A stretch of 64,000 nucleotides of DNA, taken from NCBI GenBank assembly GCA_964016885.1, contig OZ024743.1, positions 317,626,001 through 317,690,000 of the forward strand. The letters run 5' to 3'. Origin of the DNA: Eledone cirrhosa (lineage: Eukaryota). The notes under the pieces were generated by a model that saw only the letters and a list, made by a program, of their open reading frames with translations, searched no databases and was not told the DNA's origin. The translations under genes were made by a program, and so were the position numbers. Positions within the stretch are counted from its first letter, which is position 1, and each line of letters starts with the position of its first letter. Of this stretch, positions 4,163 through 64,000 are shown piece by piece.

Positions 4163-8194
<4,032 letters not shown>

Positions 8195-13779: not shown

Positions 13780-15281
13780 CGTTCCATTATCTGGATTATC
13801 TGGTGGGCTCTTAGAAAACTAGGTGTTGAGTGGCTTGTGAGAGCTATACAAGCCATGTATAAAGAAACAGTCAGCAAGGTTAGAATTAACAACGAATATA
13901 GTGAAGAGTTTAGCGTAAAAGTTGGTGTTCAGGCTATAACAGTGGAGTTCAAGACCGGCTGCCCATGGAAACTCCTATACGCTCATAGCTGAATCAATGG
14001 CCGAACTCGAGAAGAAATTCCAAACATGGAAGCATGGCCTAGAATCAAAAGGCCTTAAAATTAACCTGTCTAAGACTAAAGTTCTAGTTTGTAGGAAGGA
14101 AAATAGGGCACCGGTCCCATCCGGGAAAAGGCCATGCTCAGTGTGTAGGAAAGGAGTAGGCAGAAACTCCATTTTATGTCCCAAATGCAAAGTATGGGTG
14201 CATAAAAGATGTAGTGGGATCACAGGTAAGCTAAGTAAGAACATAGATTTTATATGTGGCTGGTGCTCTGGTGCAATAAGTAGCAGCAAGTGCCCACAGA
14301 ATACTAGCTCATTCCATTGCACAGATGGTTCTATAGAAATAGTGGACACCTTCCGTTACTTGGGTGACAAAATCAGCAATGGTAGAGGGTGCTCTGAAAG
14401 TACAGTAGCTAGAGTCAGAACTGGATGGAAAAAGTTCCACTATTAGCCGCTAAAGGGTTCTCTCTAAAAATGAAAGGCAGGCTGTATGATGCCTGCATAT
14501 GAATGGCAATGAGACCTGGGCATTGTGTGCAGAGGATATACACAGACTGGAGAGGAACGAAGCTTGCATGCTCCATTGGATGTGTAATAGTAATATACAT
14601 GAACGGCAAAGCACAAACGAACTAAGGGAAACATTAGAAATAAGAGGGATCAGATGTTGTTTACTCTAGAGAAGACTACTTTGGTATGGTCACGTGATGT
14701 GCATGAAAGACGACAGCTGTATAAAAAAGTGCAGGGCAATAAAAATAGACGGTAGCCACGGAGTAGGCAGACCCAGAAAAACCTGGGACGACTTGATAAA
14801 TTCCGACTTACACACTTACACCTCTCCAAGACAATGTCACTGGACCGAGATCTTTGGCGCTACACAGTAATACAGAAGACCCGCCTTACCTAAGTACAAA
14901 GTGAAACCTACTACAGTCAGTAGGCACCTCTAACAAAATACACCCCCGTCCCACTACCCCCACCCCATCCACACCACCCCTTTCAATGTAAAGTTATGTT
15001 GGTACCACAACATCCAGTCCGAAACAAATGAGGTCGTGTATGTGTCATGACAAAAAAACACACAGTCCATGCTGTAATGTGGCCGTGTAGGTAACACGGT
15101 AAAAACCTCCCAGTTCCACACTGTAAATGTGGTTGGTGTTAGGAAGGGCATCCAGCCGTAGAAAACCTGCCAGACAGTCCTATGCGAGCAAGACAACCAC
15201 TCTTGCCACAAGTGGGAAAACTCCCGTTCAAACCCATGCAAGCATGGAAGATGGACGTTAAACGATGATGATGATGATGAT
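13780..15281 (+). mobile_element. RTE subfamily B, 5'-truncated with internal deletions, full 3' UTR and (GAT)n tail
   Basis: ORF 13997-14446 and downstream RLRWYGH/GRPRKTW remnants. Confidence 0.92.
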
Positions 15282-24400: not shown

Positions 24401-27400
24401 GTGCAGTCTTAGTTACACTCTCTATGTATACAGATATAACTTTATATATATCATCATCATTTCATTTTACGTCCGCTTTTCCCTGCTTGCAAGGGTGGGA
24501 CGGGAACTGATTCTGGCTTGATTTCTACAGCTGGATGCCCTTCCTAACACCAACCCCATTTACAGTGAGTGCTGGGTGCTTTTTTGCCGTGGCACCTCCA
24601 CGACCACTTTGCAGTGGAATGATAGGGACCCCAGTCCCTATCATCTCATTTCTACAGCTGAATAAACTGGAGCAATGTGAAATAAAGTGTCTTGCTCAAG
24701 GAAACAACACATCACAAATATATTATAATATAATGGGGTTGTTAGTAGATAATCAAGAACAATAGAATGAAAATTAATGAAAGTTGGTAGAATGAGATGA
24801 TAAAAGGCATCCCAGACGTGACCAACTTGTTTCTACATATCTCTCTCTCTCTCTCTCTATGGAACAACAGACATAAACTGATGATGATGAAGACTGATAG
24901 GGTTACACAGCGACAATCTTTAAGGTTTTAAATAGTTTAAAAGACGGCGACATTCTCTTACCTCATGATCTACATAACTGTTACAAATATAACACCATAC
25001 AGAGATATCTGCATAGCTTAGCACCATACAATGGTCAGGCTCAACTTTGTTGTGCATCAACATATGTCCGTTTATATATCGACTGCAGTACACCTGTAAA
25101 AGACAAACAAAAAATAACAGTAAATATATATATTATAAAGTGGTTGGTGATAGGAAGGGCATCCAGCTGTAGAAAACTCGATGAAGAGGACTCTTTAGTT
25201 GTGTCAAAAATGACAATTTCCCTGGTGCCATGATTGCACACTGTTTCTCATTCTGTAAAGTATGGGGGCATATGTAAACAAGATGAGTCCTCAGCCCATC
25301 TGGGAGACCAGTGGCTTTGATTAAGTACTGAATTGATCTGTGAAGACCTGGAATATTAAATAATGATGATATAAATATATATCCACACACGTATACAATG
25401 CTCTTATAAGGGTACTGAGGTAGCTGTGATATGATCACAGCTTAAAATACAGTGGGGCTATTAGTATGTTCATTATAAATAAATATATAAGGTGGTGAAT
25501 TGGCAGTATCAGTAAAGAGTCAGACAAGATGCTCTGTGGCATACAGTTATAGCCCTTTACATTCTGAGTTCAAATCCTTATGGTGTTAATAAAATAAAGT
25601 ACCAGTAACACTGGGATCAATTTAATCAACTTTCTCCTCCCTCCAAATTGTTGGCCTTCTGCCTAAATCAGAAACCATTATAGTTGGACAAAATGACAAA
25701 AAGAGATTGATAAAATAAGTACTGGAGTTAGTATGATAAACAAAATCCTTTCAAGACGAAGCCCCTAATATGGTTAAAGTCTAATGACTGAAACCAGTAA
25801 AAAAATAAATATAAAGAATTTGGGAAGCCATGAAAGATTATGAGGATCATAGAAAACGTAGGAAACTCAAACACAAAAATAACTTTAAATACAGTTGGTT
25901 GCTATAGATAGCTTAAAAGACCTCTTATAGATGGAAAAGTGGCCAGTGGTTGCTATGAAGAATCAAACTCCACATCTCTCAGATAATGGTTGAGTGCTTT
26001 AATCATTAAGCTGTGGGACCACTAATAACAACCACAATCTAAATTGGGAAGCTTAATCAAACACCCTGTAAATAAAAACAAACAATATTGTATATACATA
26101 CCTTATAGCAAGTAAGACAAACCCAATTCTCATTTATGTCTCCACATGTTTTACATGGGGCTGATGTATCAAGACCTCCTTCTGGCAGAACATGTGTCAC
26201 GATTTCAAGATGTGGACACCAACTTAAAGGTTTAATACAGTACAGAGATTCTTGCTGAAATGAGAAAGATATGTAAAGTTTTTTGCATGATTTTTTTATA
26301 ACAGATCATATATTGAAACAAATATTGTACTTTGGCAGAGTCATGCTGCCACTTAAAATACATGTATCAATCGAGTTTCACTTAAGTTTTATTATTGATC
26401 AGGTAAGAACAGTGGATTGGAAGAATTAGTAGAGCATCGGACAAATGCTTATCAGTATTTGTTTCTTTTTTTTATGTTCTGAGTTCAAATCCTGCTGAAG
26501 TCAACTTTGCCTTTCATCCTTCTAAGGTTGATTAAATAAAGTATCAGTCAAGTACAGGAGTAGATTTAATTGTCCATCCCCTCCCTACAAATTGCTGGCC
26601 TTGTGCCTGAATTAGAATCATTATTTATTAAAATTAATTAATCAATTAATTGGTTAATCAACTAAGTAATTAATTATCAAAGTCATTTCATCACAACCTG
26701 TGACCTTATTGATAACTCTTGCCTTCTGTGTTTTCTATTTGTCTTTCTGTCTCTCACTTGTACATATGAAAGTAGGAGGGAAATGTAACCCTGTGTTTGT
26801 GTGTGACACGACAAAAAGCACCCAATCCACCCTGTAAGGTGGTCGTGCTGGGGACATGACAACAAAAAAATACCCAGCCCACTCTGCAGATGGTTGTGCT
26901 GGTATCACAATGAAAAAGCACACAGTTCACCCTGTTAGATGGTCGTTTTGGTGCCACAATAAAAGCACCCAGTTCACACTGTAATGGGCTTAGTGTTAGG
27001 AACGCCATCCAGCTGTAGGAACCAAGTCAGAAACAGTTGAATATGAGTAAAAACATGGTCACCTGACCTGACTTGTTGCATGTAACAACCCATCTCATCC
27101 ATGCAAGCATGGAAAAATGGACATTAAACAGTTGATGATGATATACGAGTTGATTAACAGATGATGATGATATACGAGGTGTGTCAGAAAAGTTTCAGGA
27201 CTGATGACACAAAAGATTTATTTCAAACCCAAACTTCACACTAAGAATTTTCTCCTTCAAAGTAATCCCCCTGGAGTATGTAACTGTAATCTTAGCTCTC
27301 TGCAGCGATCAAACTTTTTTCTTCATAATTTTATATACATGTCCTCTGTTTCAGGTCATCAAGCAATGAGCACAGAGCAACGAACACACTTGAAGTTTCT

Positions 27401-32419: not shown

Positions 32420-33730
32420 ATCATCATCATCATCTTCATTTAACGTCCATCTTTCACGCTAGCATGGGTTAGACGGGAGTTTTCCCACTTGAGGCAAGGT
32501 TGGTCGGGTGACCGTGTCTCACTCATATAGGACTATCTGGCAGGTTTTCTACAGCTGGATGCCCTTCCTAACAACAACCAGATTTAGTGTGGGCTGGGAG
32601 TTTTTTTACAGTGTTACCTACACGGCCACATTACAGCATGGACTGTTTTTTTTTTTTTGTTGTGACACCTACACAATCTCGATCTCATTATCTCATTTAT
32701 TTGGACTGAATGTTGCGGTACTAACTTTACAGAGAGAGGGTGGTGGGAGTGGGAGGATAGAGTAGGGGTAGTGGACTGGTGTATATTTGGTTAAGAGGTG
32801 CCTACTGACTGTAGGTTTCACTTTGTACATAGGCAAGGCGGGTCTTCTGTATTACTGTGTAGCGCCAAAGATCTCGGTCCAGTGACATTTTCTTAGAGAA
32901 GTGTAAGGTCAGAATTTATCAAATCGTCCAAGGTTTTTCTGGGTCTACCTACTCCATAACTTCCATTAATTTTGATCGCCCTGCACTTTTTTATACAGCT
33001 GTCGTCTTTCATCCGCATCACGTGACCATACCAACGTAGTCTTCTCTCAAGTAAACAGCATCTGATCCCTCTTATTCCTAATTTCTCACTTAGTTCATTT
33101 ATGCTTTGCCATTCACGTATATTACTATTACACATCCAACGGAGCATGCATGCTTTGTTCTTTTCCAGTCTGCACAGGTCCTCTGCATGCAATGCCCATG
33201 TCTCACTGCCATGTAGCATTGCTGTTCGTATACAGGCATCATACAATCTGTCTTTCATTTTTAGAGAGAAACCTTTTGTAGCCAACAGCGGTATAAGTTC
33301 TCTGAACTTTTTCCATCCCGTTCTGACTCTGGCTACTGTACTTTCAGAGCACCCTCCACCACTGCTGATTTTGTCATCCAGGTAACGGAAAGTGTCCACT
33401 ATTTCTATAGAACCATCTGGGCAATAGAAGGAGCTAGTATCCTGTGGGCACTTGCTACTTATTGCACCTGAGCATCGGCCACATATAAAATCTATGTTCT
33501 TAAATAGCTTACTTGTGATGCCACTACATCTTTAATGTACCCATAGTTTGCATTTGGGACATAAAATGGAATTTCTACCTACTCCTTTCCTACACACTGA
33601 ACATGGCCATTTCCCTGAGGGCACCTGTGCCCTATTTTCCTTTCTACAAACTAGAACTTTAGTCTTAGACAAGTTAACTTTAAGGCCTTTTGATTCTAGG
33701 CCATGCTTCCATGTTTGGAATTTCTTCTCT
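32420..33730 (-). mobile_element. RTE subfamily B 3' fragment
   Basis: ORFs 32893-33399 and 33532-33777. Confidence 0.92.
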
Positions 33731-33972: not shown

Positions 33973-34211
33973 ATTATTATTATTATTCTTATTCTCTTGC
34001 GCTAAGTGGTTGTGTAGGTGTCTTGACAAAAGTCCCCAGTCCACACTGTACAGTGGTCGTGTAGGTGTCACGACAAAAAGCACCCAGTCCATACTGTAAA
34101 GTGGTCGTGTAGGTGTCACAACAAAAAGAACCCAGCACAATGGGACAACCCATCCTACCAATGCTAGCATGGAAAATGGACATTAAACGATGATCATTAT
34201 TATTATTATTT

Positions 34212-35634: not shown

Positions 35635-35950
35635 GGAGGCACATGGCTTAGTGGTTAGAGCATTGGCCTTGCAATCGAAAGGTTGTGAGTTCAATTCTCA
35701 GACCGGGTGATGTGTTGTTTCCTTGAGCAAGACACTTTATTTCACATTGCTCCAGTTTACTCAGCTGTAGAAATGCAAAGTGGTCGTGGAGGTGCCACGG
35801 CAAAAAGCACCCAGCCCACTCTGTAAAGTGGTCGTGGAGGTGCCACGGGAAAAAGCACCCAGCTCACTGTAAATAGCTGTAGAAATCAAGCCAAAATCAG
35901 TCCCCGTCCCACCTTTGCAAGTAGGGAAAAAATGAAATTGAATGAAATGA
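35635..35950 (+). mobile_element. SINE family A, tRNA head intact
   Basis: A box TGGCTTAGTGG, B box GAGTTCAATTC, CORE-like tccttgagcaagacacttt, tandem units, RTE-type tail. Confidence 0.88.
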
Positions 35951-46190: not shown

Positions 46191-49100
46191 TGTCTGCTGT
46201 TTCATGCTTGATTGGATTGAATGGGTTATTTTCAGCACAGCATCTCTTCACTCATCATGTTCCTTCAACTCCTCTGTGAGCTTCAGTGATTTGACATCAG
46301 CTCTAACCACCTCTGCCCAGGTCTTCCTCTTGTCTTATTTCTTAAAGTGGTTTGTAGCACTGATTAAGTACTGGCTTGGCCTGTGACAATCCATCCAACC
46401 CTTGCTAGCAGGGGGAACATATACTAAATGATGATGAGGATGAGTGTATCTAGTACTACATTATCCAATGTACCATTTTTTGTTTAAGCTGATAGATACT
46501 TGAAGGTGATTTGGCAACCATTTCTAACAGTTTGAGAAACGATATAGAAATCCCCTTGTTGACTTATGATGATGATAATGTTGTTTATCACCTTACCAAC
46601 CCTAATCAACTAGTCTGATGATCAAATATGTTCCAGTTGTGACCATTTTATCTCATTTTAAACATAGTGTATCTAGGACTATATTATCCAAAGTATCCTT
46701 CCTTGTTTAAGATGATTGGTCAGGAGTCTCCAAGCTGGTAACCACAAATCCCCACTTCATCACTCCCCACTAACCTTAACTGACCTTTAGGCCAAAATCT
46801 GACATTTGTACAAGAAATGTTAGATTATATAAAATAAAATAATAAAATACAATTTGCTTTTACATGTTTCTGATTTATCTAGCTCACCTTTATTGTCTGT
46901 TATATATGTACAGGGTGTCCTCCCAAAATGTTTACACACTTTGATTACTTGTACAAGCAATATCTATTAGAATGCTCTTGAAGTATGTATACATTTTTTT
47001 GGCACGCCCTGTACATTTAGCTCACCTCTATTGTCTATTTATTTTATATATATATCTATTTACTGATTTACTTTTGTACATGCCTGGGATTGATTGATAA
47101 GGGGTTAAGGATTCCATGAAGATATCAATGGTCTAAAAATTTTGGGGATCCCTGTGATAGGTAGCTAGTATTTGAGGGAGATTTGGCTACAATTTCTAGT
47201 AACTTGAGGAATAACATAGAAGCTCCCTCGTTAACTTATGATGATGATTAGCTCCAGGACAGCATTAATACAGCAGACCTATTGACCAAAGATGTTCCAT
47301 AAGTATCCATATTTGTTTAAGGTGGTAGATATTATTTGAGGGAGATTTGGTGACTATTTCTAACAGTTTGAGTAACAACATAGAAACATGTTGTTTAGCT
47401 CCAGGACAACTTTAATACAGCTGACCAATGATCAAAAGTACTCCAGCTGTATCATTATTACCACAGGAAAAGCTTAGATGAACTTTCTCTTTTGGTTCCA
47501 GATCACTTTGTGCCATCTTGCTTAACAATATCTTCATCCAGAAGTTGTGATTCCAAGAATAAGGAAGTCTTTTTACAGTCGTAGCTTTCTTCCATCTCAT
47601 TGTTTTCCTCCTCCTTCTTATGACCTGAACTCTTTCAGGTCTAAAGTAAATTCATTCCTTTCATCTTAATTTCTTCTTCATTGTCCCTTACACTAAGTGG
47701 CTTCATGCTATGTTTGGGACTTCCATAAGAAAAAAAAAAGATGTATCTATGCCCACATTATCCAACACAGGGTGATGGATTGGTGGAATTGTTAGTACAT
47801 TGGATTGGATACCTTGTAATGTCTGTTCTGGTTCTGTGTACTGAGTTCAATTCTTGCTTCACTGGAAAGACATGATATGATAGTATAGGGTCTCTTTCAT
47901 TAAAACACCCAAGAAATTAGTATTCATTTCATTATTTTAGGCCCTTTACATTCTGAGTTCAAATCCTGTCACGGTTAGTTTTTCTTTTCAACCTTACAAG
48001 GTTGATAAAATGAAGTACCAATAAAACACTAGGGTTGATTTAATCAATTTTTCTGCTTTCCTTCAAATTGTTGGCCTTGTGACAAATGAAGAAATTATTA
48101 TTTTGCAGCATGTCATTACGGCTCTTTATATTCTGAGTTGAAATCCCACCAAAGTTAGCTTTGCCTTTCACCCTTATGAGGTTGGTAAAATAAAGTATCA
48201 GTAAAGCACTGGGGTCGATTTAATCGACTTGCCTCTTCCTTTTAAATTGTTGGCCTTGTGCCAAAAGTAGAAACAATTATTTTGTACAAGTGCAGGGCAG
48301 TGGATTGGCATAAATGTTAAGATGTCTGATAGAATGCTTTGTAGTATTCGTTCTGGCTGTCTGCATTCTGAGTCCAAACCCCATCAAGGTTACTTCTGAT
48401 ATTGAGAAAATAAAGTACCAGTCAAATACTGGTACTTTATATAATCAATTTATATCATTGATTTCTCCTCCCCTCCCCTCCCAAATTGCTGACCTAGTGC
48501 CGAAATGATGAAATTTGAAAAAATTAAAGTTATAATTATTTTACCTATGTACCATTACTTGATGTTACTCACAGTAGCAAAAGTTATCATCATCATCATC
48601 ATATGTCTATTTTCAATGCTGGCATGAGTTGGATGGGTTTTCATACTCTAAGATCAGGCTGTTCAGACAACTATATCTTGCTCATATGTTCCATATTTGT
48701 CCTTCATATCACCAACCACTTTACAGGGTGTACTGGGTGTATTTTATCATGGCACCAGCACTACCACTTTACAGAGTATATTGGTAAATTTATCATGACA
48801 CCAGCACTAACATTTTACTGTCTGTACTAGGTGCAATTTATCAAGGCTCCAGCACTAGAGAAGTTGTCATGCACTCTGCAAGACTGAAAAGTCTTCTCTA
48901 CCCTATTTTGTCTCAATTCAGTTGCCAACCATTCTACAGCGTGTATTAAGTGTATTTTACCATGGTACTATCACTAGAGAGGCTGTAAAGTCCTTGACAG
49001 GACTAAAGGGTCCTCTCTACATTGTACAGTGACAATGTGTTTTAATTAATATTGAAAAAAAAATCAGAAGAATTTGATAATATAACTAACTTTCTCATTA

Positions 49101-51519
49101 AGCTGATGTTTGGAGCATAATTTAACAAAAAAATTCTTATATATAATTTTGTTATATTTGGGGGTGGTCCTGTTGCCAATATTACCAATAAAAAAAACAT
49201 GCACCATATGATTTTCACTTTTTCCCTTTATCTTTATTACTAGTAATTGGTTAGTTTATCAAAGTTCTTTCGTCACATATTCTGTGACCTCTTCAGTGAC
49301 TATCTGTTGTCTTTTGTGCCTCCTCTTCTGTCTGGTCTTAATCTGTTACTCCATCTTGTACTTTTTTTGTGGTGTGTTTTTCATGATTCAACACACATTT
49401 CAACACATGATTTCACATGAAAAATCTTGCAAAAAAAAACATTCCTATATAATTTTATGGCAGAAGACTTTAATATGATTAAGAACACTTTTATATGATA
49501 ATTCTAAGAGTGGTTTCAAGCAAGTTGCAATCAAAACAGCTAATGTAATCCAATCAACATATTTTACTTTATTTATATCTCTCTAATAATATTTCAATTT
49601 TCAGATCCTTTTGGGGTCAGTTGGAGACAAAATTGGACCAAGGAAAACATTTGCATTTTGCCTTATTTTCTCAGGGTTGTCAATGGTGAGTTTTACCAAC
49701 ATATATTTATTCTATGAAATTACTGATGTTGCTTCTCCCAACACCTCTCTCTTTTCAGTTTAGAATAGGTATACTGCATTCCCCTTGTGTCATAGCAAGG
49801 GACTAGAAAGATTGGTGCCAGAAAGCTATTAGGCCATAAAGTAATACTCTCCAAAAGGAGACTATTGTGGATATAAAGATTGTCATGGGGTTTGCATAGC
49901 TAACTCTTGCTTTAGCAGGGAAAATTGCCTAAAAGCACTTGTGTTGTTATGTGTACTTTTCTCACCCTCTCTGTTTCTTCACACACATACACAAACATTT
50001 TTCTCTCTATGTATACAGATATACACATTAGACATACCTAGTAATGGACTAATCCGTATTATAATGATTGTACTAGATTTGTTGGCCCTTCTGGGATCTA
50101 AAAAATCAATTTTTTAATTTTTATTTAGAATTCAAGAAATACAATACAAAGTAAGATAAAGTATATGGTGACTACCAATAGATTCACATGCCTGCACTTC
50201 TTTATGCAGCTATCATTCTCATGTATACATATAATCATAATGTAATTGGTGTAAAACTTACTGTAGCTGCTTTATAGTTGTCCTTGTTATTTTTTGTTGT
50301 TTTTTCTTCATATTTATGCTTCTTTTGCCTCCTGTTGTCCTTCTCTTTTTTTTTCTTCTTCTCTCTGTCTCTCTCTTGTTATATATATATATACATACAA
50401 TATATATGATAAATTACGACCTTGCACACTTGCACATCCCTAAGACAATGTCACTGGATCGAGATCTTTGGCACCACGCAGTATTACAGAAGACTCGCCT
50501 TCCCTACGTGCAAAGTTAACCTACAGTTAGTAGGCCCCTCCAAACCAAACATACACCCCAACCCACTACCCCTACTCCATCTTCCCACTCCTACCAACAC
50601 CACCCTTTCTCTATAAAGTTATGTTGGTACCATAATATCCAGTCCAAACTAATGAGATCGTAAAGGTGTCACGACAAAAAAACACACAGTCCATGCTGTA
50701 ATGTGGTCGTGTAGGTAATAGTAAAAAGTTCCCAGTCCACACTGTAAATGTGGTTGGTATTAGGAAGGGCATCCAGCCGTAGAAAACCTGCCAGATAGTC
50801 CTTTACAAGCGAGACACGGTCACCCACCCAATCTTGCCTCAAATGGGACAACTCCCGTCTAACCCATGCTAGCGTGGAAGATAGACGTTAAACGATGATG
50901 ATGGTATAATCTCCTTATAATATATAACCAGCAATTTCTCTGTCTGTCTGTCCGACAGTGGAAACACGTGCGCGCGTGGTTGCTATCTCTCTCTCTCTCC
51001 AGCTATCCCTCTCTTTTAGTCTGTCTGTTTCTCTCACTCTCACTCTTTCTCTTTGTAACACACTAACATTCCTCCCCTCTATCGCTGTGACGAATGGGGA
51101 GATGGAGGAGGAGGAGAGAGTCACTTCACCTCTGCCTTTCTTTCTCTCCCCTCTTACTCCCTCATTTCGTACAGACATTAGGGCGGTGGATTGGCAGAAT
51201 CTGTAGAGAGTCGGACACCATGCTTCATAGCATGGAGTTACGTCCCTTTACGGTCTGAGTTCAAATACCGCCGAGGTTAACTTTGCCTTTCATCCTCACG
51301 GGGGTCGATAAAATAAAGTACCAGTAATGTACTGGGTAATTGCTGGCCTTGTGCCAAAAGTAGAAACAATTATTAGAAACATTGCTTCATTTTTACATAT
51401 CTAAGCATTAGTAAAATAACTAATAATTTCAAAAGTAATTTTTCAATTCCAATTGTTATGAACAGCAAAACATTAATAATAATTTTGTTCTAAGAAATAT
51501 ATATACATTTCTGTGTGTG

Positions 51520-52820: not shown

Positions 52821-55800
52821 ATTATATATTCGTGTATAGATATTTTTTGCATACACAATAACAAAATATAAACAAACGTATTTATTTTACGAGGCTCGAT
52901 AAGGATAAATATATATCAAATATATAAGAACCCTAGAGGAAATCCTAAGCAGCGCCGGGCCATTCTGCTAGTTAATTAATAAAAAAGGTGGGTGAAGACA
53001 ACGAAAAAACAGACAAAACACAGGACAATCCCTTCTCATTAGTTGACCTCTCGTTGTCTTTGTGATTTCAGTACATTAAGGTCGATATCACTAGCTCCAG
53101 TGCACATAGGACAGTAACAAATGGATACAAGACAGAAGGATTGGTCTTTCACTTATTTACAAATAAAATAAAATTTACTACAAACCGATGTGCTGCAACT
53201 GAAAAGATTTCTTCCAGAGAAGGATAGAAAGTGAGAGAGAGAGGAAGTGAGAAAGAGATATAGTGGAAAAGAATCAACTCCAGTACTTGACTGGTACTTT
53301 TTTTATCAACCTCAAATGAAGTTCCATGTGTAGCAATATTTAATATTTTTGTATTTGTTAATTATAAGAATGCAGATCGGCTGAAAAGTTCATATGCTGA
53401 CCAAGACACTCTCGTGGAATGACCAAATGAGGTTTATTTTTTAACATATTCCTTGGAAAGAAAAGTTGAAATTAATACATGCAAGATTTCACAGCACTAG
53501 TATCACTACTTCATAGTCAGCCTATGAACTTTTCAGCCTACCTGCATAAGGCGGTGATGTAGCAAAGTTGTTAGAACATCAGAATGTTTTGTAGTATTTG
53601 TTCTTGCTCTCTGCCCTCTGAATTCAAATCTTGCCATGATAAATTTGACCTTTCATCCCTCTCAAGGTCGATAAATATTAGTCCAGTACAGGATCGATTC
53701 TTCCTCTATCTATCTTTCCTTCTTCTGTTCTGACCTGATGAAGGATTAGCTAACAGTCTTAGATTGTTTCTACATTTGGCACAAAGCCAGCGATTTGAAG
53801 GTTGGAGGGAAAGTTGATCAAATTAACCCAGTGCATTACTGGTGCTTTATATCGACCCTGTAAGGATGAAAGGTAAAGTTAACCTCATTAGGAATTGAAT
53901 TCAAAACGTAAAGGTGCTGTAATTATATCCCAATCCATCGCTCTGTTCCCAAACTTAAATGTCATCTCTACAACTCCATCAGGAATATAGGGTCCATGGT
54001 GTGGCAGAGTATGCAATTATATGCTAGTCAGAGTAGGGGCATAGGTTTCTGAATTAAATCTTTGTGAAGGGTGATTTTGACCTTCATCTCTGTAAAATCA
54101 AGGAAACAAATATCTGTAATTTACTGGGGTTTATGTTCATTTTTACTTCCTTTATCTTTACAAATGTGATCTTGCATATAACTAAAATGTAAAAAATAAA
54201 GACATCATATTACATGTTTTTCTTTCAGATAACCTTTGGGATGTGGAGTAACTTCATTGCTTTCTTCATTCTCCTGTTTTTAAATGGTACTGCTCAGGTG
54301 AGATAACTCCTATTATTTCATTCCCTCTATCTGCTAGACGTTCAGTTGTCTCTCTTTAACTTTTTCTTTTACTCTATATATTTACAATTTTTGGATGCGA
54401 CCTGCAGCGACTCGTTCTCCGCCTCCAACCTTGTCGCTTCGGTCATAAACCTGGGTTCCACTGCCTGCAATGCGGGTGAGTGGAAGATAGATACTGGGTC
54501 TGGCCGACCGCTTCCTCTTTGCACAGATCACTGTCAGGACCTCTCATATCCTTGGTCTCTGCACTGCTGATTTCCTTTCCTCTGTAAAATCACTTTACAG
54601 TGTGGACTGGGTGCTTTTTTGTCGTGGCACCTCCACGACCACTTTACGGGGTGGGGGTTGGTCTTGGGCATGCTATCTATATGCTTCAGCTTTGGCTTGT
54701 ACCCGTGGGAAGTCTGGTCTTCTGTAATACTGCATAATGCCACTGGTCTTGGTCCTGTGTCATCGCCTTTGAGAGGTGCAATTGGGCATGGTCAGCCTTT
54801 ATCACCTCTTCCCAGGTCTTCGTGATTTCCATCAACTTTCAGTGCTTTGCACCGTTTTATGCAGCTGTCATACACACACACACATATATATACACACACG
54901 CATATATATTTATTTATTTATGTACTCTTTAATATCAACAGGATTTAGTTGATCATATTAACGCCAGTACTTTTTCTCCCAAGTATGATACTTATTCCGT
55001 TGATCTCTTTTTGTTGACGCTCTAAGTTGCAGGACACAGACATACAGACACACACACATAACTAACTCCTGCTTTAGCTGAGAATCTTTAAAATGCTTTT
55101 TTTTACTGGAAATGGTGACTTACAATATGTCTTCATCATCATTGTTTAACGTTCATTTTTCCACACAAACATGGGTTAGATAAGTTGCCCTGAAGTGAGA
55201 CAAGTCAGATCAGATGACCATGTTTTGTTCAATTAGAACTGTTTCTGGCTCAGTTTCTACAGCTTGATGTCCTTGCTAAGGCCAACCACTTTTACAGCAT
55301 TGACTGGGCGCATTTTATCATGTTTCCAACATGACCACTTTACAGTGTGGACTTGGTGCTTTTTGTCTTATCACTTTACAGTGTGGATTGGAGGCTTTTT
55401 GTCAGGTCACCAAAATGATCACCTTACAGTGTGGATTGGGTGCTTTTTTTTCATGTCACCATCATGATCACTTTACAGTGTGAACTGGGCACTTTTTGTT
55501 GAGTCACCAGCATGACTACTTTAATAGTCAATAGATATAGTATTGAAATATAGTTCAAATTTTCATTGTGTAGGATGAATAGCATTTGTATTTTGTTGAT
55601 GTTAAACTTCAATCTCATTGTCATTCACTTATCATTTGCAGCAGAGTGTTGTTAAAATTTGTGTTTAAGAGCTGAGAAGGAGTGAAGCACTATCTGTAAA
55701 TAAGATAAAAGAGAGCATCATCTAGACCTCCCTATTCTTTACCATCCTACTCCTACTACTCATCGCTGTTTAACATCTCTTTTTGATGTTTGCATGAGTT

Positions 55801-56319
55801 AGATGGGCTATCACATTATGAGGCCAAACAGGTCAGGTGACCACTTCCAGCTCATATGCTCTGCTTTGACTGGGACGCCTTTCCTAATGCCAGAACTACT
55901 ACCTTACAGTGTGTACTGGGTACTTTTTTGTGATACCAGTACAATCACCTTACAGTGTGTACTGGGTGCTTTTTATCCCGTTGCTAGAACAACCACATTA
56001 CAGAATGAACTTGATGCTTTTTGTCATGGCACCAGTACACCCACTTTACAGGGTGAACTCGGTGCTTTTTGCCATGGTTTCATATTATATATGAAAAAGT
56101 GATGATAATGACAGAAACTGTAGTCTGAATAAATAACAGGTAAATTGGGGAAGATTAAATAGCAATGATGACATGTTAGACATTTCTTTTCAGGCACAGT
56201 GTTGGCCAAATTGTGTGAAGCTTTTAGGAGAATGGTTTCCTGATCGAGTACGTAACACAATATTTGGAATATTTGGTACATGTGCTTTTGGTGGAGGAAT
56301 ATTTGGAACAGCTCTTGCA
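37958..56319 (+). CDS. MFS sugar-phosphate/phosphate exchanger (SLC37/GlpT, OPA family), 5' part; join(37958-38068, 45810-45902, 49605-49685, 54229-54297, 56194-56319), 3' incomplete
   Basis: [37 protein letters not shown]|[31 protein letters not shown]|[27 protein letters not shown]|[23 protein letters not shown]|[42 protein letters not shown]. Contains TM1 YxxRK, MFS motif A ([11 protein letters not shown]), QxxxWP and WFxxxxR; all introns GT-AG, phase 0. Confidence 0.92.
38163..38420. repeat. Inverted repeat (~58-bp arms) with hammerhead-core-like motifs, plus a third partial copy
   Basis: 38164-38221 vs 38231-38289; CTGATGA...GAAAC...GTA/GTC. Confidence 0.7.
38790..39925 (+). mobile_element. 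Old degenerate RTE-clade RT fragment (distinct family)
   Basis: [45 protein letters not shown] with stops; 3' end resembles 30790-30985. Confidence 0.85.
40427..40702. repeat. 49-bp tandem repeat (~5.5 copies) inside the Gypsy LTR
   Basis: gagaatgctcttaacatgttcgctggagtaggctggtaggtgcctaaga repeated. Confidence 0.95.
42618..42956 (-). mobile_element. Full-length SINE family A inserted into the Gypsy 5' LTR
   Basis: Complete from tRNA head to GAT tail; LTR sequence resumes on both sides. Confidence 0.9.
43068..43870 (+). mobile_element. RTE subfamily B 3' fragment with full tail
   Basis: ORF 43089-43487, 3' UTR, (GAT)n. Confidence 0.92.
45810..45902 (+). CDS. SLC37-like exon 2
   Basis: ttatttcag|GTG...CAG|gttaat, 93 nt. 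Confidence 0.9.
46911..47011. mobile_element. Tc1/mariner-like ~100-bp MITE
   Basis: TA|cagggtgtcc...aaaatgtttacacactt / aagtatgtatacattttttt...gccctg|TA. Confidence 0.65.
47770..48510 (+). mobile_element. Cluster of degenerate SINE family B copies
   Basis: Repeated ctgagttcaaatcc...ttgcctttca...taaaataaagtacca...ttgttggccttgtg. Confidence 0.75.
49605..49685 (+). CDS. SLC37-like exon 3 (MFS motif A)
   Basis: ttttcag|ATC...ATG|gtgagt, 81 nt. Confidence 0.92.
50410..50905 (+). mobile_element. RTE subfamily B 3' end with tail
   Basis: [18 protein letters not shown], 3' UTR, GAT tail. Confidence 0.88.
51181..51375 (+). mobile_element. SINE family B, clean copy (others at ~17830-18110, 25490-25680, 26410-26620, 30435-30625, 35273-35395, 44950-45190, 53550-53910)
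   Basis: tRNA-like head TGGCAGAATC...GAGTTCAAATACCGCC, body ttgcctttcatcc...ggggtcgataaaataaagtaccag, tail tgctggccttgtgccaaaagtagaaac. Confidence 0.82.
51555..52971 (+). mobile_element. Two abutting non-autonomous Helitron-like elements (ending at 52087 and 52971)
   Basis: Hairpin + CTAG ends (accgcccaccgggtggttttctgctag; gcagcgccgggccattctgctag|t); the second starts TC at 52088 with (CTGT)n. Confidence 0.65.
53371..53546. mobile_element. Mariner-like MITE, ~31-bp TIRs
   Basis: tgcagatcggctgaaaagttcatatgctgac / gtcagcctatgaacttttcagcctacctgca. Confidence 0.75.
54229..54297 (+). CDS. SLC37-like exon 4
   Basis: ttctttcag|ATA...CAG|gtgaga, 69 nt. Confidence 0.9.
54385..54522 (+). mobile_element. 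CRE-like LINE restriction-like endonuclease remnant
   Basis: (W)[33 protein letters not shown], then frameshifted GLADRFLFA. Confidence 0.55.
54590..54870 (-). mobile_element. RTE subfamily A-like 3' fragment
   Basis: Similar to the reverse complement of 62195-62480. Confidence 0.8.
55135..56080 (-). repeat. Two old arrays of ~45-bp tail units with RTE-type tails (55135-55520, 55760-56080)
   Basis: Repeated accactttacagtgtg..ctgggtgcttttt.. Confidence 0.7.
56194..56319 (+). CDS. SLC37-like exon 5
   Basis: tttcttttcag|GCA...GCA|gtaagt, 126 nt; WP and WF..R motifs. Confidence 0.92.
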
Positions 56320-57871
56320 GTAAGTAGTAATTTTGTCTTCTTTTAAAAAAATAATTACCATCATCATCATCACCACTATCATGATATTAGATTTGTTTTC
56401 CATCCTGGAATAGGCTGGACAGTTCAGCAAACCACATCTTGCTCATACATTCCACTTTTTAGCATAGTTTCTATAGCCAGATACCCTTCCTAATGTTGGC
56501 CACTTTACAGAGTGTACTAGATGTATTTTATCATGGCACTTGGAAATTGTCTCCATTCAATCACCATCCACTTTACAGAGTGTACTGGGTGTATTTTATT
56601 GTGGCACCAGCACTATGTCAAAAATGTTTTTTCAACCAAGTATAAGTTAAATTTCATTTCTTTTTAACCCAAATTCACAGGAACTTCTTATGTCATCCTA
56701 TTGGGAAGTTTTTGTTGTTTTCTTATATCCTTGTTTTACTGCTATGTTTTGTTTTATCAGATATGTTTTTATTATTATTAGTTGCCATACTGAGGTATAT
56801 GTTCATGTGATATCTGTATATAATAGTCATATCATCATCATCATTACATCCACTTTTCCATGCTCACATGGGTTGGAAGGGTCCTTTTAGCATCTCTCCA
56901 CTTGTCACGTTTCTTCATCATCACCTCTGCCCTGGTCTTTCTTAGTCTATCTTTACTGCAGCTTCCTTCCACTGGGATTTCCTAGCTCCTCTTTGCCCAG
57001 CAATCATCATCTATTTGCATCAAATGTCCATACCAACACAGTCACCTTTCTTGCACACTACATATGATTCCTTATAAACCCAGTTTTTCTCTCAGTTCAT
57101 CCAATCTCTGTCATTTACATTGCACATCCAACGAAGTATGGTTGCTTCATTTCTCTGCAGTCACTGCCCATGTTTCACTATCATGCAGCATATAATACAA
57201 TCTTACTGAAGTATATGTTCATGTGATATCTATTAATACAGACATATTGAGAGAGCGAGACACGGTCACCCGACCAATCTTGCCTCAAGTGGGACAATTC
57301 CCGTCTAACCCATGCTAGCGTGAAAGATAGACGTTAAACGATGATGATGATGACGTTCATGTATAATATTACAATCAAGTAAACTAAAACCAAATTCTAC
57401 ACTACATTAAACAAAGGTCTATTTAGATGATCCTTCACTACATTAAACTAAGGTCTATAGAGATGATCCTAATATGAGATTTTGTTTAAACTTCTTTTTA
57501 CCATATTTCTCACAAAAGAAACTGTCTATGATTTTCAAATAATTCTGAAAACAACCAAGAATTTAAAGACATTTAACAATAGATTTAACATTCTTTTTAA
57601 GCTGGTGTTTGGAACATAACTTAACAAAGCTTCTTACATAAAATTATGATGGAAGGTTTTTAGATAAATCTAAACGCTTTACCCCTTTTGTTACCATATA
57701 CCCATGAAAGAAATTGTCAATGATTTTCTAATAATTTTTAAGATAAACAAGAATTTGGAGGCATTCAGTGATATAATTAATGTTCTCATTATTAAGCTGT
57801 TGCTTGGAACATAACTTAACGAAGTTACTTATGTAAAATTATGATAGGTTTTTAATTAAATATATATATAT

Positions 57872-58260
57872 ATCATCATCATCATTTTATGTCTGCTTTT
57901 CCCTGCTTGCAAGGGTGGGACGGGTCTTATTCAGCACAGCATCTCTCCACTTGTCACTGTCCTTCGTCATCTCAATCGTGAGCTTCAGCAATCTGAGGTC
58001 TGTTCTCACCACCTCCGCCCATGTTTTTCGTGGTCTACCTCTACCATGTCTTCCTTCAACTGGCATTTTCTGGCACTTCTTCACCCATCAGTCATCCTCC
58101 ATACGCATCACATGTCCATACCACCTCAGTCTCCTCTCTCGCACACTACATTCTATCCCTCTTATACACAGTTTCTCTCTCAACACATCCATGCTGGGTC
58201 CTTCACGCACATTGACATTGCACATCCAATGGAGCATGCTTGCCTCATTTCTCTCCAGTA
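57872..58260 (-). mobile_element. RTE subfamily C 3' end (short tail directly after the ORF)
   Basis: [14 protein letters not shown]...GRPRKTW...[13 protein letters not shown], then (GAT)n. Confidence 0.88.
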
Positions 58261-58655
58261 TATATATATATATATTTTTTTGTTGATCGACTTTTGTCCG
58301 AGGAAACAATGTTTCCGTTGGTCTTTCCAATTGAACATGAAATAAAGTGTCTTGCTCAACGATATAACGTATCACCCGGTCCAGGAATCGAACTGACAAC
58401 CTCACGATTGCGAATCCAGTTCTCTAACCAATCAGCCACACGCCTTCACAAGAAATGAGTTATTGGTATTTTCCTCCTCTTTCAGATCTCAACCGGCTTT
58501 GGAAGACCTGCTAAAGGTCACAGCCACTTCCTTTCCTTTGACTCAGGTCATTAATCCTTTTCATACCAAGACTGCCTGAAACCACCTCAGCTTCTATGAG
58601 ACAAAATGTTTGTTAAATATAAACACTTTATATAGTTAAATATAAACACTTTATA

Positions 58656-61600
58656 AGGCTACTACCCTGTCTTTAACCTAATTCATTCAATCTGAAAATA
58701 TTGAAGAGATAAGACACTTTCCCATTCTTCTCTGCTAAAATGTATCACTAGAGCTGATTCCAATTTTTCCAGCCATCCATCTAATCTACGAAGGTATTTT
58801 AGCCTACATATTGTCGTTAATATTATGATGTTCCCTGCTGTATTAGCGTTAAATTTTCCCTGCTGTATTAGCGATAAATTTTCGAGGGTTTCTCTTAGTA
58901 GTTTTTCATGACGTTAATTTTACTGATGTAGTATTAACTTATTAACTTGGATATTTACCATGCGGTATTCTAATCCTATTGTATCTCTCTCAGTTATTTA
59001 CCATGCGACCCTCAGTTCCTACCTCACAATTTCCCTTCCCCCCCCCCCACCCCCACACACCACCATAGTCTATTCGACCAATCAAACCTAGCATGCCATT
59101 TCCACTGCTGCTGCTACTACCTGCCTAACTAACTCTCTCCTCCTCTGGCGCATCCCAACACACCCTGCCATCACCCCACCACCACTGTTCTTCTAGCCCT
59201 CAATTTTCCCACCGTTATGGATGGATGAGCTGGGAATACACGAGCAACTCTGAATCAATAGATGAAATATGAATCTGCAAGCTACCAAGCACCCACGTGA
59301 AGCGCCAACCCAGAGACCCTCCCCTACGAGTGTCGACAAATGCCCAAAACTCCGAGTTGGTACCATCAATGTAGGCACAATGAAAGGAAGAGCAGGAGAA
59401 ATCGTAGAAATGCTAGAGCGAAAGGAAGTTGATGTATGCTGTGTGCAAGAGACTAGATGGAGAGGAGAGTCTGCTAGAGTCCTTGTAGGAAAAAGCCAGT
59501 GCTACAAATTTTTCTGGGTGGGAAATGACGATGGGATGGGTGGTGTAGGTATACTATTAGCTGACAAGTGGGTAGATAAAGTAATCTCAGTGTACAGGGT
59601 AAATGCAAGAATCATTAAACTCAGACTAGTCCTGAATAAGACAATTACCACAATAATATCAGCTTACGCACCCCAATCGGGGCTGCCAGACGAACTTAAG
59701 GATAGGTTTTACGAGTCCCTAATACACACTACTGCTCTAACAGACGACACGGACTTCCTAATCATTGCAGGAGATTTTAACGGGCACGTAGGTAAACACT
59801 GCGACGGCTTCAATAGAGTACATGGAGGCCATGGAGTTGGCACAAGGAATGAGGAAGGATTCAGACTTCTAGAATTCTGTGACGCCAATGACATGTCGAT
59901 ATGTAACACAAACTTTAAAAAAACCCGACAACCACCTGATCACCTATAGATCAGGGGAGCACTCTAGTCAGTTAGATTTTATCCTCATCAGAGGACGTGA
60001 CAGATGGACGGTCGTAAATACAAAAGCCTTCCCTAGTGAGGAATGTACATCCCAACATAGCTTAGTTGTCAGCGACCTCACGGTCAGAACTAGACGAGCC
60101 CTGAAACAGAGGCCAACCTGGAGAAGAAAGATCTGAAAGCTGAAAGTCCCCTCAACCAGTAACAGATTTAAAGATATTTTACTCAACGCCTACGACAGTA
60201 AAGAAGAACAGATAGAGACATTTAACGTAGAAGAGAACTGGGAGTTCCTAAAAAATAACTTACTAGAGGCGACGGATGAGGTTTGTGGCTGGAGTAAGAC
60301 CTCAAGCAGGAGGAGAGTGACTTGGTGGTGGAACAATAAGGTAGATGAAGCAGTCAAGGCCAAGAGACAGGCATGGAAAGAATGGAAGAACGGGGGGAGC
60401 AGGGTACATTACATAGAGACCAAGAGGGAAGCTAGGCGACAAGTATACTTAGCTAGGAGGGAAGCAGAGGATAGAAAATTCAAGCATGTTTTACAACGTG
60501 AGGACCAGAAACAGGAGGTATTCAAGATTGCGAGGCAGTGTGTCAGAGATAGTTGTGATGTCATTGGAGAGAAGTGTATCCGGAATGATAAAGGTGAGCT
60601 TGCCCTCACAAGTGCTGAGAAGAAAGATGCATGGAAGAGTCATTATGATAGATTACTAAATGAGGAGAATGCATGGGAAGAAGAGACCCTACCCCACGTA
60701 GACCCTATAGAGGGACCAGCAGTACAAGTCAGCGGCAGCGTAGTAAGTAAGGCAATCAGAGATATGAAGATAGGGAAGGCAACCGGTCCATCGGGTATAG
60801 CTGCCGAGATGCTGAAGGCATCTGGGTCTGTAGGTCACACTATAACCACACGTATCGTTAACCAGGTAATACTAGAGGGGGCCATACCAAAAGATTGGTG
60901 CAGTAGCATCATTGTCAACTGCTACAAAGGTAAAGGCGATGCACTAGATAGAGGAAACTATAGAGGTATAAAGTTGATGGACCAGGTCATGAAAGTAACA
61001 GAAAGAGTTATAGCACAGCTGATTAGGGACCGGGTGAATATAGACGAGATGCAATTTGGGTTTGTACCAGGGAAAGGCACCACTGATGCCCTCTTCCTTG
61101 TGAGGCAATTACAGGAAAAGTACCTAGCTAAAAGTAAGCCACTCTACTTGGCATTTGTCGACCTTGAGAAAGCCTTTGACAGAGTTCCACGTGCAGTAAT
61201 CTGGTGGGCTCTTAGAAAACTAGGAGTAGATGAATGGCTTGTGAAAGCGGTACAAGCCATGTATAGGGGAGCAGTCAGCAAAGTTAGGATTGGCAATGAG
61301 TATAGCGAGGAATTTAGCGTACAGGTTGGGGTCCACCAGGGCTCTGTTCTTAGCCCTCTCCTGTTCATCATAGTCCTGCAGGCAATAACGGAGGAGTTTA
61401 AGACCGGATGCCCATGGGAACTCCTGTATGCTGATGACCTCGCACTCATAGCTGAATCTATGGTAGAACTAGAGAATAAATTCCAAACCTGGAAGCAGGG
61501 ACTAGAGAGAAAGGGCCTCAAAGTCAACATGACAAAGACTAAGGTCCTTATAAGTAGACGAGAAAACAGAACCCAGATCCCCTCAGGGAAATGGCCTTGC

Positions 61601-62689
61601 TCAGTATGTAGGAAAGGTGTAGGTAGGAACTCCATTCTCTGCCCCACTTGCAAACAATGGGTACACAAGAGATGTAGCGGGATCTCAGGAAGCTTAATTA
61701 AGAATGTAGGATTCACATGCAGCAGCTGTGCTGAAACAGCAAGCAAACAGCCACAGGAAACAAGTACCACCAATCTCTGGGAGGGCCCTGCAGAAACAGT
61801 AGACAGCTTCTGCTACCTAGGTGACCGAATTAGCAACGGAGGTGGGTGCTCAGAAAGTACAATAACTAGGGTAAGAACGGGATGGAAGAAGTTTAGGGAA
61901 CTACTACCACTGCTAGCTGCAAAAGGCTTCTCCCTCAGAATGAAAGGCAGACTGTATGATGCGTGTATCCGAACAGCGATGTTGCATGGTAGTGAGACCT
62001 GGGCGCTGAAGGTGGAAGACTTACGTAGATTAGAGAGAAACGAAGCCTGCATGCTCCGATGGATGTGTAACAGTAATATACGTGAACGACAAAGCATAAA
62101 GGAATTGAGAGAGAGACTGAGCATAAGAGGAATCAAATGCTGCGTGCAGGAGAGGCGGTTACGCTGGTATGGACATGTGATGCGTATGAAGGATGACAGC
62201 TGCATAAAAAGGTGCAGAGCACTAGAAGTTGATGGAAACCGCGGAGTGGGGAGACCCAAGATGACTTGGGATGAGGTGATAAAAGCCGACCTTACCCAAC
62301 TACACCTCTCAAAGTCAATGACACACGACCGTGACTTCTGGCGTCACGCAGTAATACAGGGTACCCGACCTCCCATGGGTACATGCTGAAGCATATAAAC
62401 AATATGCCCCCCCCCCCCCCCCCACCGCAAGGTGGTCGTGGCGGCGCCACGGCAAAAAAGCACCCAGCCCACACTGTAAAGTGGACGTGTAGGCGCCACG
62501 AAAAAGCACCCAGCACTCACTGTAAATGAGGTTGGTGTTAGGAAGGGCATCCAGCTATAGAAATCAAGCCAGATCAGTTCCTGTATGAGCAAGGCATGGT
62601 CAGCCGACCAGACACTGCCCACAACAGGACAACCCGTCTAACCCATGCTAGCGTGGAAGAACGGACGTAAAACGGTGATGATGATGATG
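58656..62689 (+). mobile_element. Near full-length RTE-clade LINE (subfamily A): APE endonuclease + RT + PHD-like zinc finger; one frameshift (~59920) and one in-frame stop (60134-60136)
   Basis: ORF pieces 59269-59949 (TINVGT, VQETRW, GDFNGH), 59879-60136 and 60317-62389 ([29 protein letters not shown]); (GAT)n tail; flanked on both sides by a 23-bp tandem unit gttaaatataaacactttatata (TSD-like). Confidence 0.95.
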
Positions 62690-62744
62690 ATAGTTAAATA
62701 TAAACACATTATATAGTTAAATATAAACACTTTATATAGTTACG

Positions 62745-64000
62745 CATATATGTGACGCAAATAACCTAACTATCTGTAACACTAACTTCAAAAAACGAGA
62801 CAAACACTTGATCACCTATAGATCAGGGGAACACACCAGTCAGATAGATTATATCCTTACCAGAAGACGTGATAGAGTGTCTGTTGTAAACACTAAATCC
62901 CTCTCCCATGAAGAATGCACCTCCCAACATAGACTCATAGTCAGCGACCTCATAGTCAGGACAAGACGTACTCGACAACAGAGGAGGACTATCCTCAAGA
63001 GAAAAATATGGAAGCTAAAGGACCCCACAGCCAGTAATAAATTTAAAAGCATATTACTTGATGCTTTTGACAGTAAAGAAGAGCAATTAGAGTCGTATAA
63101 TATAGAGGAACAGTGGGAATTCCTGAAAGCTAACCTGCTGAAGGTGGCAGATGAAGTCTGTGGCTGGAGCAGGCCTATAAGCAGGAGGAGAGTAACGTGG
63201 TGGTGGAACAGTAAGGTGGAAGAGTCAATTAAGGCCAAAAAGCAGGCTTGGAAAGTATGGCGGGATGGGGAAAGAAGAGAATACTATCAAGTGGCCAGGA
63301 GGGAAGCTAGAAGACAAGTGTACTTCGCAAGAAGGAAAGCAGAGGAAAGAAAGTTCAAGCATGTTCTACAACGCGAGGACCAAAAACGTGAGGTGTTCAG
63401 GATTGCTAGGCAATGTGTCAAGGAAAACCGTGATATGGTCGGGGAGAAGTGTGTCCTTAATGATGATGCTGTACTTGCCATCACTGACGCTGATAAGAAG
63501 GTAGCTTGGAAGTGTCACTACGAAAGACTACTAAATGAGGAGAATAAATGGGAGAAAGACAGTCTCCCCCACATCGATCCAATAGAGGGACCAGTAGTGC
63601 TAGTTGAAGGTAGTATAATGAGTAAGGCAATCAAAGATATGAAGATGGGTAAGGCGGCTGGGCCTTCGGAAATAGTTGCTGAAATGCTGAAAGCATCTGG
63701 AATGGTGGGACACACTATGGTCACCCGGATAGTAAACCAAGTCATACAGAATGGGGTCGTTCCGAAGGACTGGCATAGCAGCATCATCATTAACTGCTTC
63801 AAGGGTAAAGGAGATGCCCTAGATAGGGGTAACTATAGAGGCATTAAATTAATCGACCAGGTCATGAAAGTCACAGAAAAAGTAATAGCACAACTAATCA
63901 GAGAGCGAATTGATCTAGATGAAATGCAGTTCGGGTTTGTGTCAGGTAAAAGTACCACAGACGCTCTTTTGTACGGCAACTACAGGAGAAGTACCTAGCT
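62745..64000 (+). mobile_element. 5'-truncated RTE LINE (subfamily B), runs off the window
   Basis: ORF 62808-63998 homologous to the APE C-terminus/RT N-terminus of the adjacent element. Confidence 0.93.

Follow-up and report, generated by a model that had tools for sequence, protein, structure and literature searches.

Why would a retrotransposon carry a tandem array of predicted RNA pseudoknots behind its stop codon? The question is raised by a LINE of the RTE type, here family A, that occupies 58656..62691 (+) of the window, the whole 64,000-nt stretch of Eledone cirrhosa DNA analysed here. The copy is near full length, with a presumed 5' end, and Pfam recognizes its endonuclease (APE), reverse transcriptase (RT) and PHD-like finger domains (Exo_endo_phos, RVT_1 and PHD). 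A single ORF with APE and RT domains, broken by one frame change between 59949 and 60137, together with a short-repeat tail gives the anatomy of the RTE clade, a name that we assume for these LINEs from that anatomy; the RT tree contained unnamed relatives. The zinc finger lies directly behind the RT domain (61600-61730; residues 488-531 of P0001) and is common to many relatives. A 14-nt word within a 23-nt tandem repeat flanks the element, at 58612-58655 and directly after the tail, resembling a target-site duplication. Family A is young, because 40 scored genomic copies of its 3' end are 93-100% identical. Directly after the focal tail starts a second, 5'-truncated RTE copy (62790-64000, +), whose 423-aa frame has no Pfam match.

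The focal ORF stops at 62389, the array begins 46 nt downstream and the element ends in (GAT)5 at 62691; scanning the family A 3' UTR for AATAAA and ATTAAA found neither. For 62431..62560 a sequence-only reading had proposed a tandem unit of about 45 nt, consisting of a ccac..gtgg hairpin followed by one compact H-type pseudoknot with two covarying stems. The units measure 48-50 nt in a profile HMM parse, and each is predicted to form two H-type pseudoknots, PK-A and PK-B, that abut without a spacer. The ccac..gtgg pairing is better read as stem 2 of PK-B, with CAG/CTG as stem 1; the earlier reading overlooked this knot as well as its correspondence to the CORE domain of SINEs.

In the focal copy, where all parts lie on the plus strand, a half remnant of PK-B with stem 2 only, recognizable from the sequence, opens the array (62420..62434). 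Unit 1 follows with a PK-A at 62435..62464, in which a 6-bp stem 1 (62435-62440/62448-62453), a 2-nt loop 1 and an A-tract loop 3 accompany stem 2 (62443-62447/62460-62464), and with a predicted small, CORE-like PK-B at 62465..62484 (CAG/CTG, CCAC/GTGG, loop 3 TAAA). In unit 2 the PK-A is decayed (62484..62510; stem 1 of 4 bp, no knot found by the scanner), and stem 2 of its PK-B (62511..62531) reads CTCA/TGAG, a double change relative to unit 1 that has the letters of the genome's SINE CORE. Next come a hairpin with an AGGAAG loop (62530..62555), identified by its fold and assigned an RTE 5'-UTR origin since it precedes the APE start in family C and in the distant RTE L130, and the terminal stem-loop with its (GAT)5 tail (62634..62691). 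The latter is likely the end recognized by the RT, as a similar end closes family C and distant RTEs that have no unit. The pseudoknot claimed for this region stands for the family, in whose consensus all five pairs of unit 1 PK-A stem 2 form, but less well for the focal copy, where both units have a central C.A mismatch in that stem (GGCGC vs GCACC). Few copies have it in unit 1 (28 of 30 family members read GGTG), but in unit 2 it is the norm of the family (27 of 30).

Across units, the PK-A geometry is a stem 1 of 5-6 bp, a loop 1 of 2 nt, a stem 2 with at most 5 bp and, loop 2 being absent, an A-tract as loop 3, and the PK-B geometry is a CAG/CTG stem 1, a loop 1 of 1-2 nt, a stem 2 of 4-5 bp (ccac/gtgg) and a TAA(A) loop 3. 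A pseudoknot scanner that uses stem energies with no loop penalty found PK-A, with both interleaved stems and feasible loops, in 7 of the 12 larger unit types (five lack it) and PK-B in 9 of 12. Each knot found beat at least 96 of 100 shuffles, the unit types having been picked by similarity and thus being non-independent trials. By the scanner, families A, B and C and the SINE each retain both knots in one unit. The commonest unit type, family B unit 2 (40 of 250), has a strong hairpin but only two of five stem-2 pairs and no PK-A, and unit 2 of the young family A also has none. One intact PK-A may be retained per element, with extra copies decaying. Of 16 multi-locus unit types, 13 retain CAG/CTG and one has it with a wobble. 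Nothing stands out in the z-scores of nested folding (-0.02 to -1.61).

Covariation was assessed in 250 of 312 parsed units that passed a mismatch filter, grouped into 93 clusters. For 72 of these 93 representatives, pairing in the four stems holds in 75% of cells, whereas slid controls reach 27-44%. None of 500 shuffles reached the covariation score; as shuffles ignore relatedness, columns were simulated independently along a tree instead, using our own simulation rather than R-scape, a tree built from 41 columns and a pair set from which two CpG pairs were left out. Under this null, which follows the earlier proposal to check covariation with CpG sites excluded, the 93 clusters give p=0.050 for the whole structure (PK-A stem 1 0.27, stem 2 0.49; PK-B stem 1 0.36, stem 2 0.012). 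The 93 clusters plus nine array consensuses (102 sequences) give p=0.006 (PK-A 0.35 and 0.17; PK-B 0.30 and 0.004), and the 28 multi-member types p=0.008 (PK-A 0.45 and 0.012; PK-B 0.73 and 0.024), these two sets having been chosen after the 93-cluster result was known. No single pair passes the family-wise tree null (G 15 vs a 95% null maximum of 62). The 93-cluster value rises to 0.165 when the fifth pair of PK-B stem 2 is omitted, a pair whose register is set by where the alignment is anchored, here at the GG end.

The signal is modest and is carried by the loop-pairing stems, with double-sided changes at three of the five pairs in PK-A stem 2 and at two of five in PK-B stem 2. PK-A stem 1 shows no non-CpG covariation in any of the three sets, so the claim that both stems covary is not supported for this one, and PK-A stem 2 has a signal in the 28-type set but in neither of the other two. 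Its quoted examples at 35783, 15082, 15033 and 34056 are all present in the sequence as written, but two of them do not serve as cases of covariation. At 15082 the AGGT/ACCT pairing uses a shifted register, the homologous columns form two of five pairs and the younger majority has AGGC; at 15033 TGTGT/ACACA needs a T that is absent from the family consensus (G opposite A in a 29-unit cluster), and 'catgac' reflects CpG decay. Likewise, the CTCA/TGAG change in unit 2 may have come in from the SINE CORE instead of being compensatory. Genome-wide counts at pair 4 of PK-A stem 2 (G-C 108,588; G.T 28,681; A.C 5,649; A-T 2,278, with about 1,490 A-T expected under independence) were set aside because satellites dominate three of the four classes. 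Overall, support for the structure is moderate, and better for PK-B than for PK-A. PK-B has interleaved stems and covariation; its stem 1 is invariant here and covaries only in published CORE consensuses.

These consensuses connect the unit to an older problem. The conservation of SINE central domains through hundreds of millions of years has been called a major enigma, in a study that describes such domains as not found in LINEs (PMC5804259). The CORE of the SINEs in this genome ends in CAG-TTT-ACTCA-G-CTG-TAGAAA-TGAG (49,762 pattern matches, control 0), nearly the letters of family A unit 2 PK-B. CORE and PK-B were compared by eye because a MAFFT alignment failed to recover the register. Judged in this way, 9 of the 11 CORE-bearing consensuses in the supplement of PMC5804259 contain the CORE 3' segment, Ante and Elco being the two without it. 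In the same supplement stem 1 reads CAG/CTG in horseshoe crab, CTG/CAG in five decapods, CAC/GTG in Aplysia, CTC/GAG in sea star and, with one mismatch, CTC/GTG in coral; stem 2 is ACCCA/TGGGT in five consensuses, ACCTA/TAGGT in three decapods and has four of five pairs in one. Alligator MIR1 combines CAG/CTG with CCCCA/TGGGG (PMC5786205 supplement). Across phyla, then, the published consensuses show joint changes at the two variable stem 1 pairs and at two or more of the stem 2 pairs, the five decapods counting as about one lineage. A third CORE-SINE family of the genome (L299-L313) has a different register (CTCC/GGAG) and a mostly mismatched second stem, with C.A in 13 of the 15 copies retrieved.

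PK-B shares with the CORE domain of MIR and octopus OR2 most letters and the geometry of a 3-bp stem, a 5-bp stem and an A-rich last loop. It differs in a first loop of 1-2 nt instead of 3, in having no 5' CORE block and in its position in LINE UTRs. According to PMC4824008 the segment lies outside the 45 bp common to all CORE-SINEs and is absent from CORE2-type SINEs. The match of PK-B to the CORE 3' half may be due to common descent or to convergence. A pseudoknot is not described in the accessible parts of PMC5804259 and PMC4824008, and an earlier proposal of one for CORE, or of the double knot, was not found in the literature searched, whose reach does not include the founding CORE papers. 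It is conceivable, though we would not yet favour it, that the SINE CORE's 3' half, from corals to vertebrates, is a small H-type pseudoknot and a portable, stackable RTE UTR module that would engage the ribosome or resist decay whatever its LINE partner. A 25-nt predicted knot with natural compensatory variants makes the question of CORE conservation directly testable, and this reading of CORE would extend to vertebrate MIR-type repeats.

How widespread is the unit? The profile HMM counts 51 units in the window, spread over 24 loci, in line with the more than 15 loci noted before, and 313 units at 136 loci when a 1.6-Mb genome sample was added (160 stretches of 10 kb picked at round coordinates of the 3.0-Gb genome); the reversed control gave 0 matches. 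Extrapolation from the 112 loci in the 1.6 Mb gives about 2 x 10^5 unit loci genome-wide, and an exact core pattern has 108,588 genome matches vs one for a control pattern. The repeat is a real and very abundant module within known kinds of elements. Its reported position upstream of the hairpin and the GAT tail is confirmed, as the AGGAAG hairpin follows the unit locus in 102 of 136 loci and a GAT-tailed RTE end in 85 of 136; conversely, 92 of 107 AGGAAG hairpins have a unit immediately upstream.

Within the window, two units lie in the 3' UTR of an RTE of family B at 15033..15133 (+), and other family B 3'-UTR arrays at 931-1024, 43628-43721 and 50658-50748 (+) and at 8342-8434, 21656-21745 and 32586-32676 (-). 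A single intact unit found by HMM sits in a CORE-SINE at 24556..24603 (-), with further CORE-SINE units at 3329-3372, 7554-7598 and 42730-42771 (all -). Older arrays of two to five units occur in short elements at 55291..56615 (-), with more at 18360-18488 (-), 26798-26987 (+), 34010-34139 (+) and 48716-48856 (-). The window also holds (TA)n-type microsatellites of kilobase length, as well as 5.7 copies of an unrelated 49-nt tandem repeat (1186-2689, 4161-7426 and 40429-40706). The unit seeds DNA satellites as well; long satellites of 48-nt units with higher-order periods lie in the assembly at C1:2.295-2.307 Mb, C1:6.455-6.470 Mb and C28:114.16-114.17 Mb (G000).

Comparison of carriers suggests where the module came from. 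Family C is full-length and young, its 40 scored copies being 99-100% identical. Its 5' UTR contains one unit plus the hairpin about 60 nt ahead of the start codon of the APE, whereas its 3' UTR, only about 50 nt long, has neither. Families A and B, a clade with support 0.99 in the RT tree to which C is adjacent, have different 5' UTRs and place the module after the stop codon. In the unrelated RTE L130, the one distant 5' UTR examined, the hairpin again stands upstream of the APE. By contrast, 41 distant RTE 3' UTRs, those of 79 metagenome RTE loci whose match reaches the C-terminus, contain no unit and no AGGAAG hairpin; most end within about 100 nt, and the contig end cut three.

The SINE adds a third context. 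A tRNA-headed CORE-SINE with a family C type tail lies at 35635..35950 (+; 3' end approximate). Inspected by eye, it has a head with A and B boxes, a CORE 5' block, a CORE 3' segment and a LINE-derived tail; ARAGORN found no intact tRNA in it. Its CORE (35721-35775, +), with a CAG/CTG knot segment of its own, is joined directly to two units (35783-35873). The SINE thus runs from a tRNA-like head through CORE to a unit plus hairpin as in family A, and takes its tail from family C. From these placements, the unit and its AGGAAG hairpin form an RTE 5'-UTR module that was likely transferred to the 3' UTR of a sister lineage and also to a CORE-SINE, which supports the suggestion of a structured RNA module traded between retroelements. 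The module would have originated in a 5' UTR, been transferred by template switching and been duplicated by slippage. Other RTE 5'-UTR pieces are known in SINE bodies (PMC5786205 and PMC7245038).

Bipartite RTE elements and RTE-derived SINE bodies are accordingly among the closest known systems. They too join RTE 5'-UTR pieces and RTE 3' tails behind tRNA or CORE heads, with tail exchange between families (Kojima 2018, PMC5786205; Kojima 2020, PMC7245038). They differ in that the letters of the module were not found in the 2018 supplement, in that the parts of the two studies consulted describe no structure or tandem array, and in that in the focal genome the 5'-UTR piece also occurs in the 3' UTR of an autonomous LINE. 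The RTE 5'-UTR piece of Ceph-SINE (RTE-3_BF) has a start that can form a knot of PK-B geometry, CCC/GGG with GCTAT/ATAGC (PMC5786205 supplement). On the minus strand of L130, about 60 nt before the hairpin, GTCGC/GCGAC with GCCTT/AAGGC forms a possible knot, next to a CAG/CTG hairpin, and perhaps represents a distant form of the module. A family C 3' end with its short UTR lies beside a CORE-SINE fragment at 57872-58228 (-) of the window.

What, then, might the module do? At the 3' end it is dispensable, as family C and the distant RTEs have none in their 3' UTRs, and a role in the life of the RNA prior to insertion would be the most likely remainder. Reasoning from analogy, we tentatively favour a non-coding RTE module whose RNA, as two abutting knots, would act as a stability and translation element, bringing the RNA to the ribosome and to freshly synthesized reverse transcriptase. 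The model is the upstream pseudoknot domain of TMV, in which three compactly stacked knots lie 25 nt after the stop, one of them critical, and the domain can replace poly(A) and contacts the ribosome (PMC5382211; bioRxiv 10.1101/2025.10.12.681957). Both systems have compact stacked knots soon after the stop, before a terminal structure bound by the replicase and with no poly(A), and in both one knot counts more than the others. On the RTE RNA, with (GAT)n at its end in place of poly(A), the stack would act in the same way. The position of a stack ahead of a terminal structure, as in tobamoviruses, is found here at the level of predicted geometry only, and a tRNA-like end as in TMV was not found. 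The differences are that we claim no shared sequence, that the RTE module also occurs in 5' UTRs and in Pol III RNA, and that function is demonstrated for TMV and proposed for the RTE/SINE module. A stability or ribosome-docking element independent of the LINE would explain how CORE survived tail swaps. For RTE-based, RNA-templated gene insertion the module would be a candidate 5' or 3' part.

The chief rival is that the module is a passenger, an ancestral structured 5'-UTR piece captured into 3' UTRs and SINEs where it has no job, multiplied by slippage and unequal crossover while its inherited pairing decays. We consider this doubtful, but several results speak for it: PK-A is lost in the terminal units of successful young families, its stem 1 lacks covariation, and most G-C pairs in the 93 clusters show wobble changes about as often as mismatch changes, as neutral decay predicts. 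Moreover, the unit forms long satellites, some with a broken pair, so that broken variants were amplified as well. Against it, double-sided changes are more frequent than the tree null allows in the multi-member set, in both of the stems that pair a loop, CAG/CTG is near-invariant among multi-locus types, and the single-unit elements (SINE and family C), few cases as they are, keep both knots. Were the module a passenger, the finding would shrink to an ordinary retrotransposon-derived minisatellite.

Less probable is a selfish platform for template switching, on which the knots would pause the RTE reverse transcriptase and repeat homology would promote exchange and duplication of modules. The mosaic SINE, with its CORE, family A unit and hairpin and family C tail, would fit, as would the tandem duplications of PK-B, unit 2 and hairpin at seven family B loci, and conserved SINE domains have been suggested to act in recombination (PMC5804259). 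The duplications, however, may stem from one subfamily, and family B shows no excess of 5' truncations within the array (1.6 per kb at risk there vs 2.2 downstream and 1.2 upstream). The 31 ends behind these rates were hand-picked from 48 family B rows after SINEs, other families and one duplicate were dropped and edge and tandem-duplication loci censored. In this small sample truncations fall smoothly with distance and show no pile-up at the array, which lends no support to a hard RT stop or to nuclease-trimmed templates. In the family B 3' UTRs L220:678-1042, L224, L267, L184, L269 and L168 the segment of PK-B, unit 2 and hairpin is present in two to four copies, and the junction of the duplications is a short word common to unit 1 and the sequence behind the hairpin.

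A role at the DNA level is improbable, although the 5'-UTR origin is in keeping with it. Here the unit would be a 5'-UTR promoter monomer that in 3' UTRs drives short, tail-bearing transcripts. The 5' ends of family C type do consist of tandem monomers of about 90 nt, and many short elements start at or inside the array; compensatory changes, however, point to single-strand pairing and not to a fixed protein site. Such monomers, each hairpin plus unit, are seen at L223:6330-6650 (+) and L047:3420-3720, and young family C copies have a GT-rich stretch and a poly-T run further upstream.

Recognition by the RT, one of the roles first suggested, is quite unlikely because related elements manage without the module at their 3' end. 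If the RTE protein bound the unit to start target-primed reverse transcription, its position in families A and B and the SINE, within 250 nt of the 3' end, would be suitable. It is missing, though, from family C and from 41 of 41 examined distant RTE 3' ends, which have a short tail instead; the SINE uses the family C tail, and copies with only the last ~50-110 nt exist.

Least probable of all is a self-cleaving ribozyme or a ribosomal frameshift stimulator. HDV-like or twister ribozymes are possible in RTE 5' UTRs (PMC5786205; PMC8501958), and the non-LTR 5' ribozymes, HDV-like in R2 and RTE and twister variants in Perere-3 (PMC8501958), share with the module a pseudoknotted RNA in the 5' UTR; exonuclease resistance of the ribozyme fold is remarked in PMC11371274. 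In the module no catalytic motif or fixed 5' cut site was found. Targeted Rfam scans, the search proposed by the sequence-only reading, returned no ribozyme match at E up to 10, nor up to 2, and core-motif descriptors of HDV-like, hammerhead and twister ribozymes, run with no positive control, matched 0 of 10 regions; catalysis therefore finds no signature in either. In 19 of 20 family C copies the element extends upstream past the poly-T ahead of the module, which indicates no fixed cut. A pistol reading was rejected on its motif and the Rfam scans, and the 150 listed of 251 Rfam matches for the whole window gave microsatellite-driven miRNA noise. As for frameshifting, the likeness to luteovirus-type knots that had been pointed out holds for geometry, since the -1 stimulators of poleroviruses and luteoviruses, also H-type and compact, combine a short loop 1 with a loop 3 rich in A (PMC5382211 and PMC5009743). 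It does not extend to function: according to PMC5009743 such stimulators lie 5-9 nt after a shift heptamer within an ORF and occur singly, whereas the RTE module forms arrays outside the reading frame with no ORF shift site 5-9 nt upstream, and its location beyond the ORF excludes the role.

Outside the focal elements, near-identical family A ends appear in sequencing runs of 16 organism labels (share >= 0.3), and contigs from other organisms also show the module and its tandem joints; a scan of viral sequence collections gave no match. The AGGAAG hairpin occurs without the unit in short bipartite elements and SINEs of other organisms (L078, L107, L124 and L131-L138), the contigs L130-L138 having an eukaryotic look under prokaryote assembly labels. 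At L046:~8950-9170, a long fold-back inverted repeat encloses two AGGAAG hairpins.
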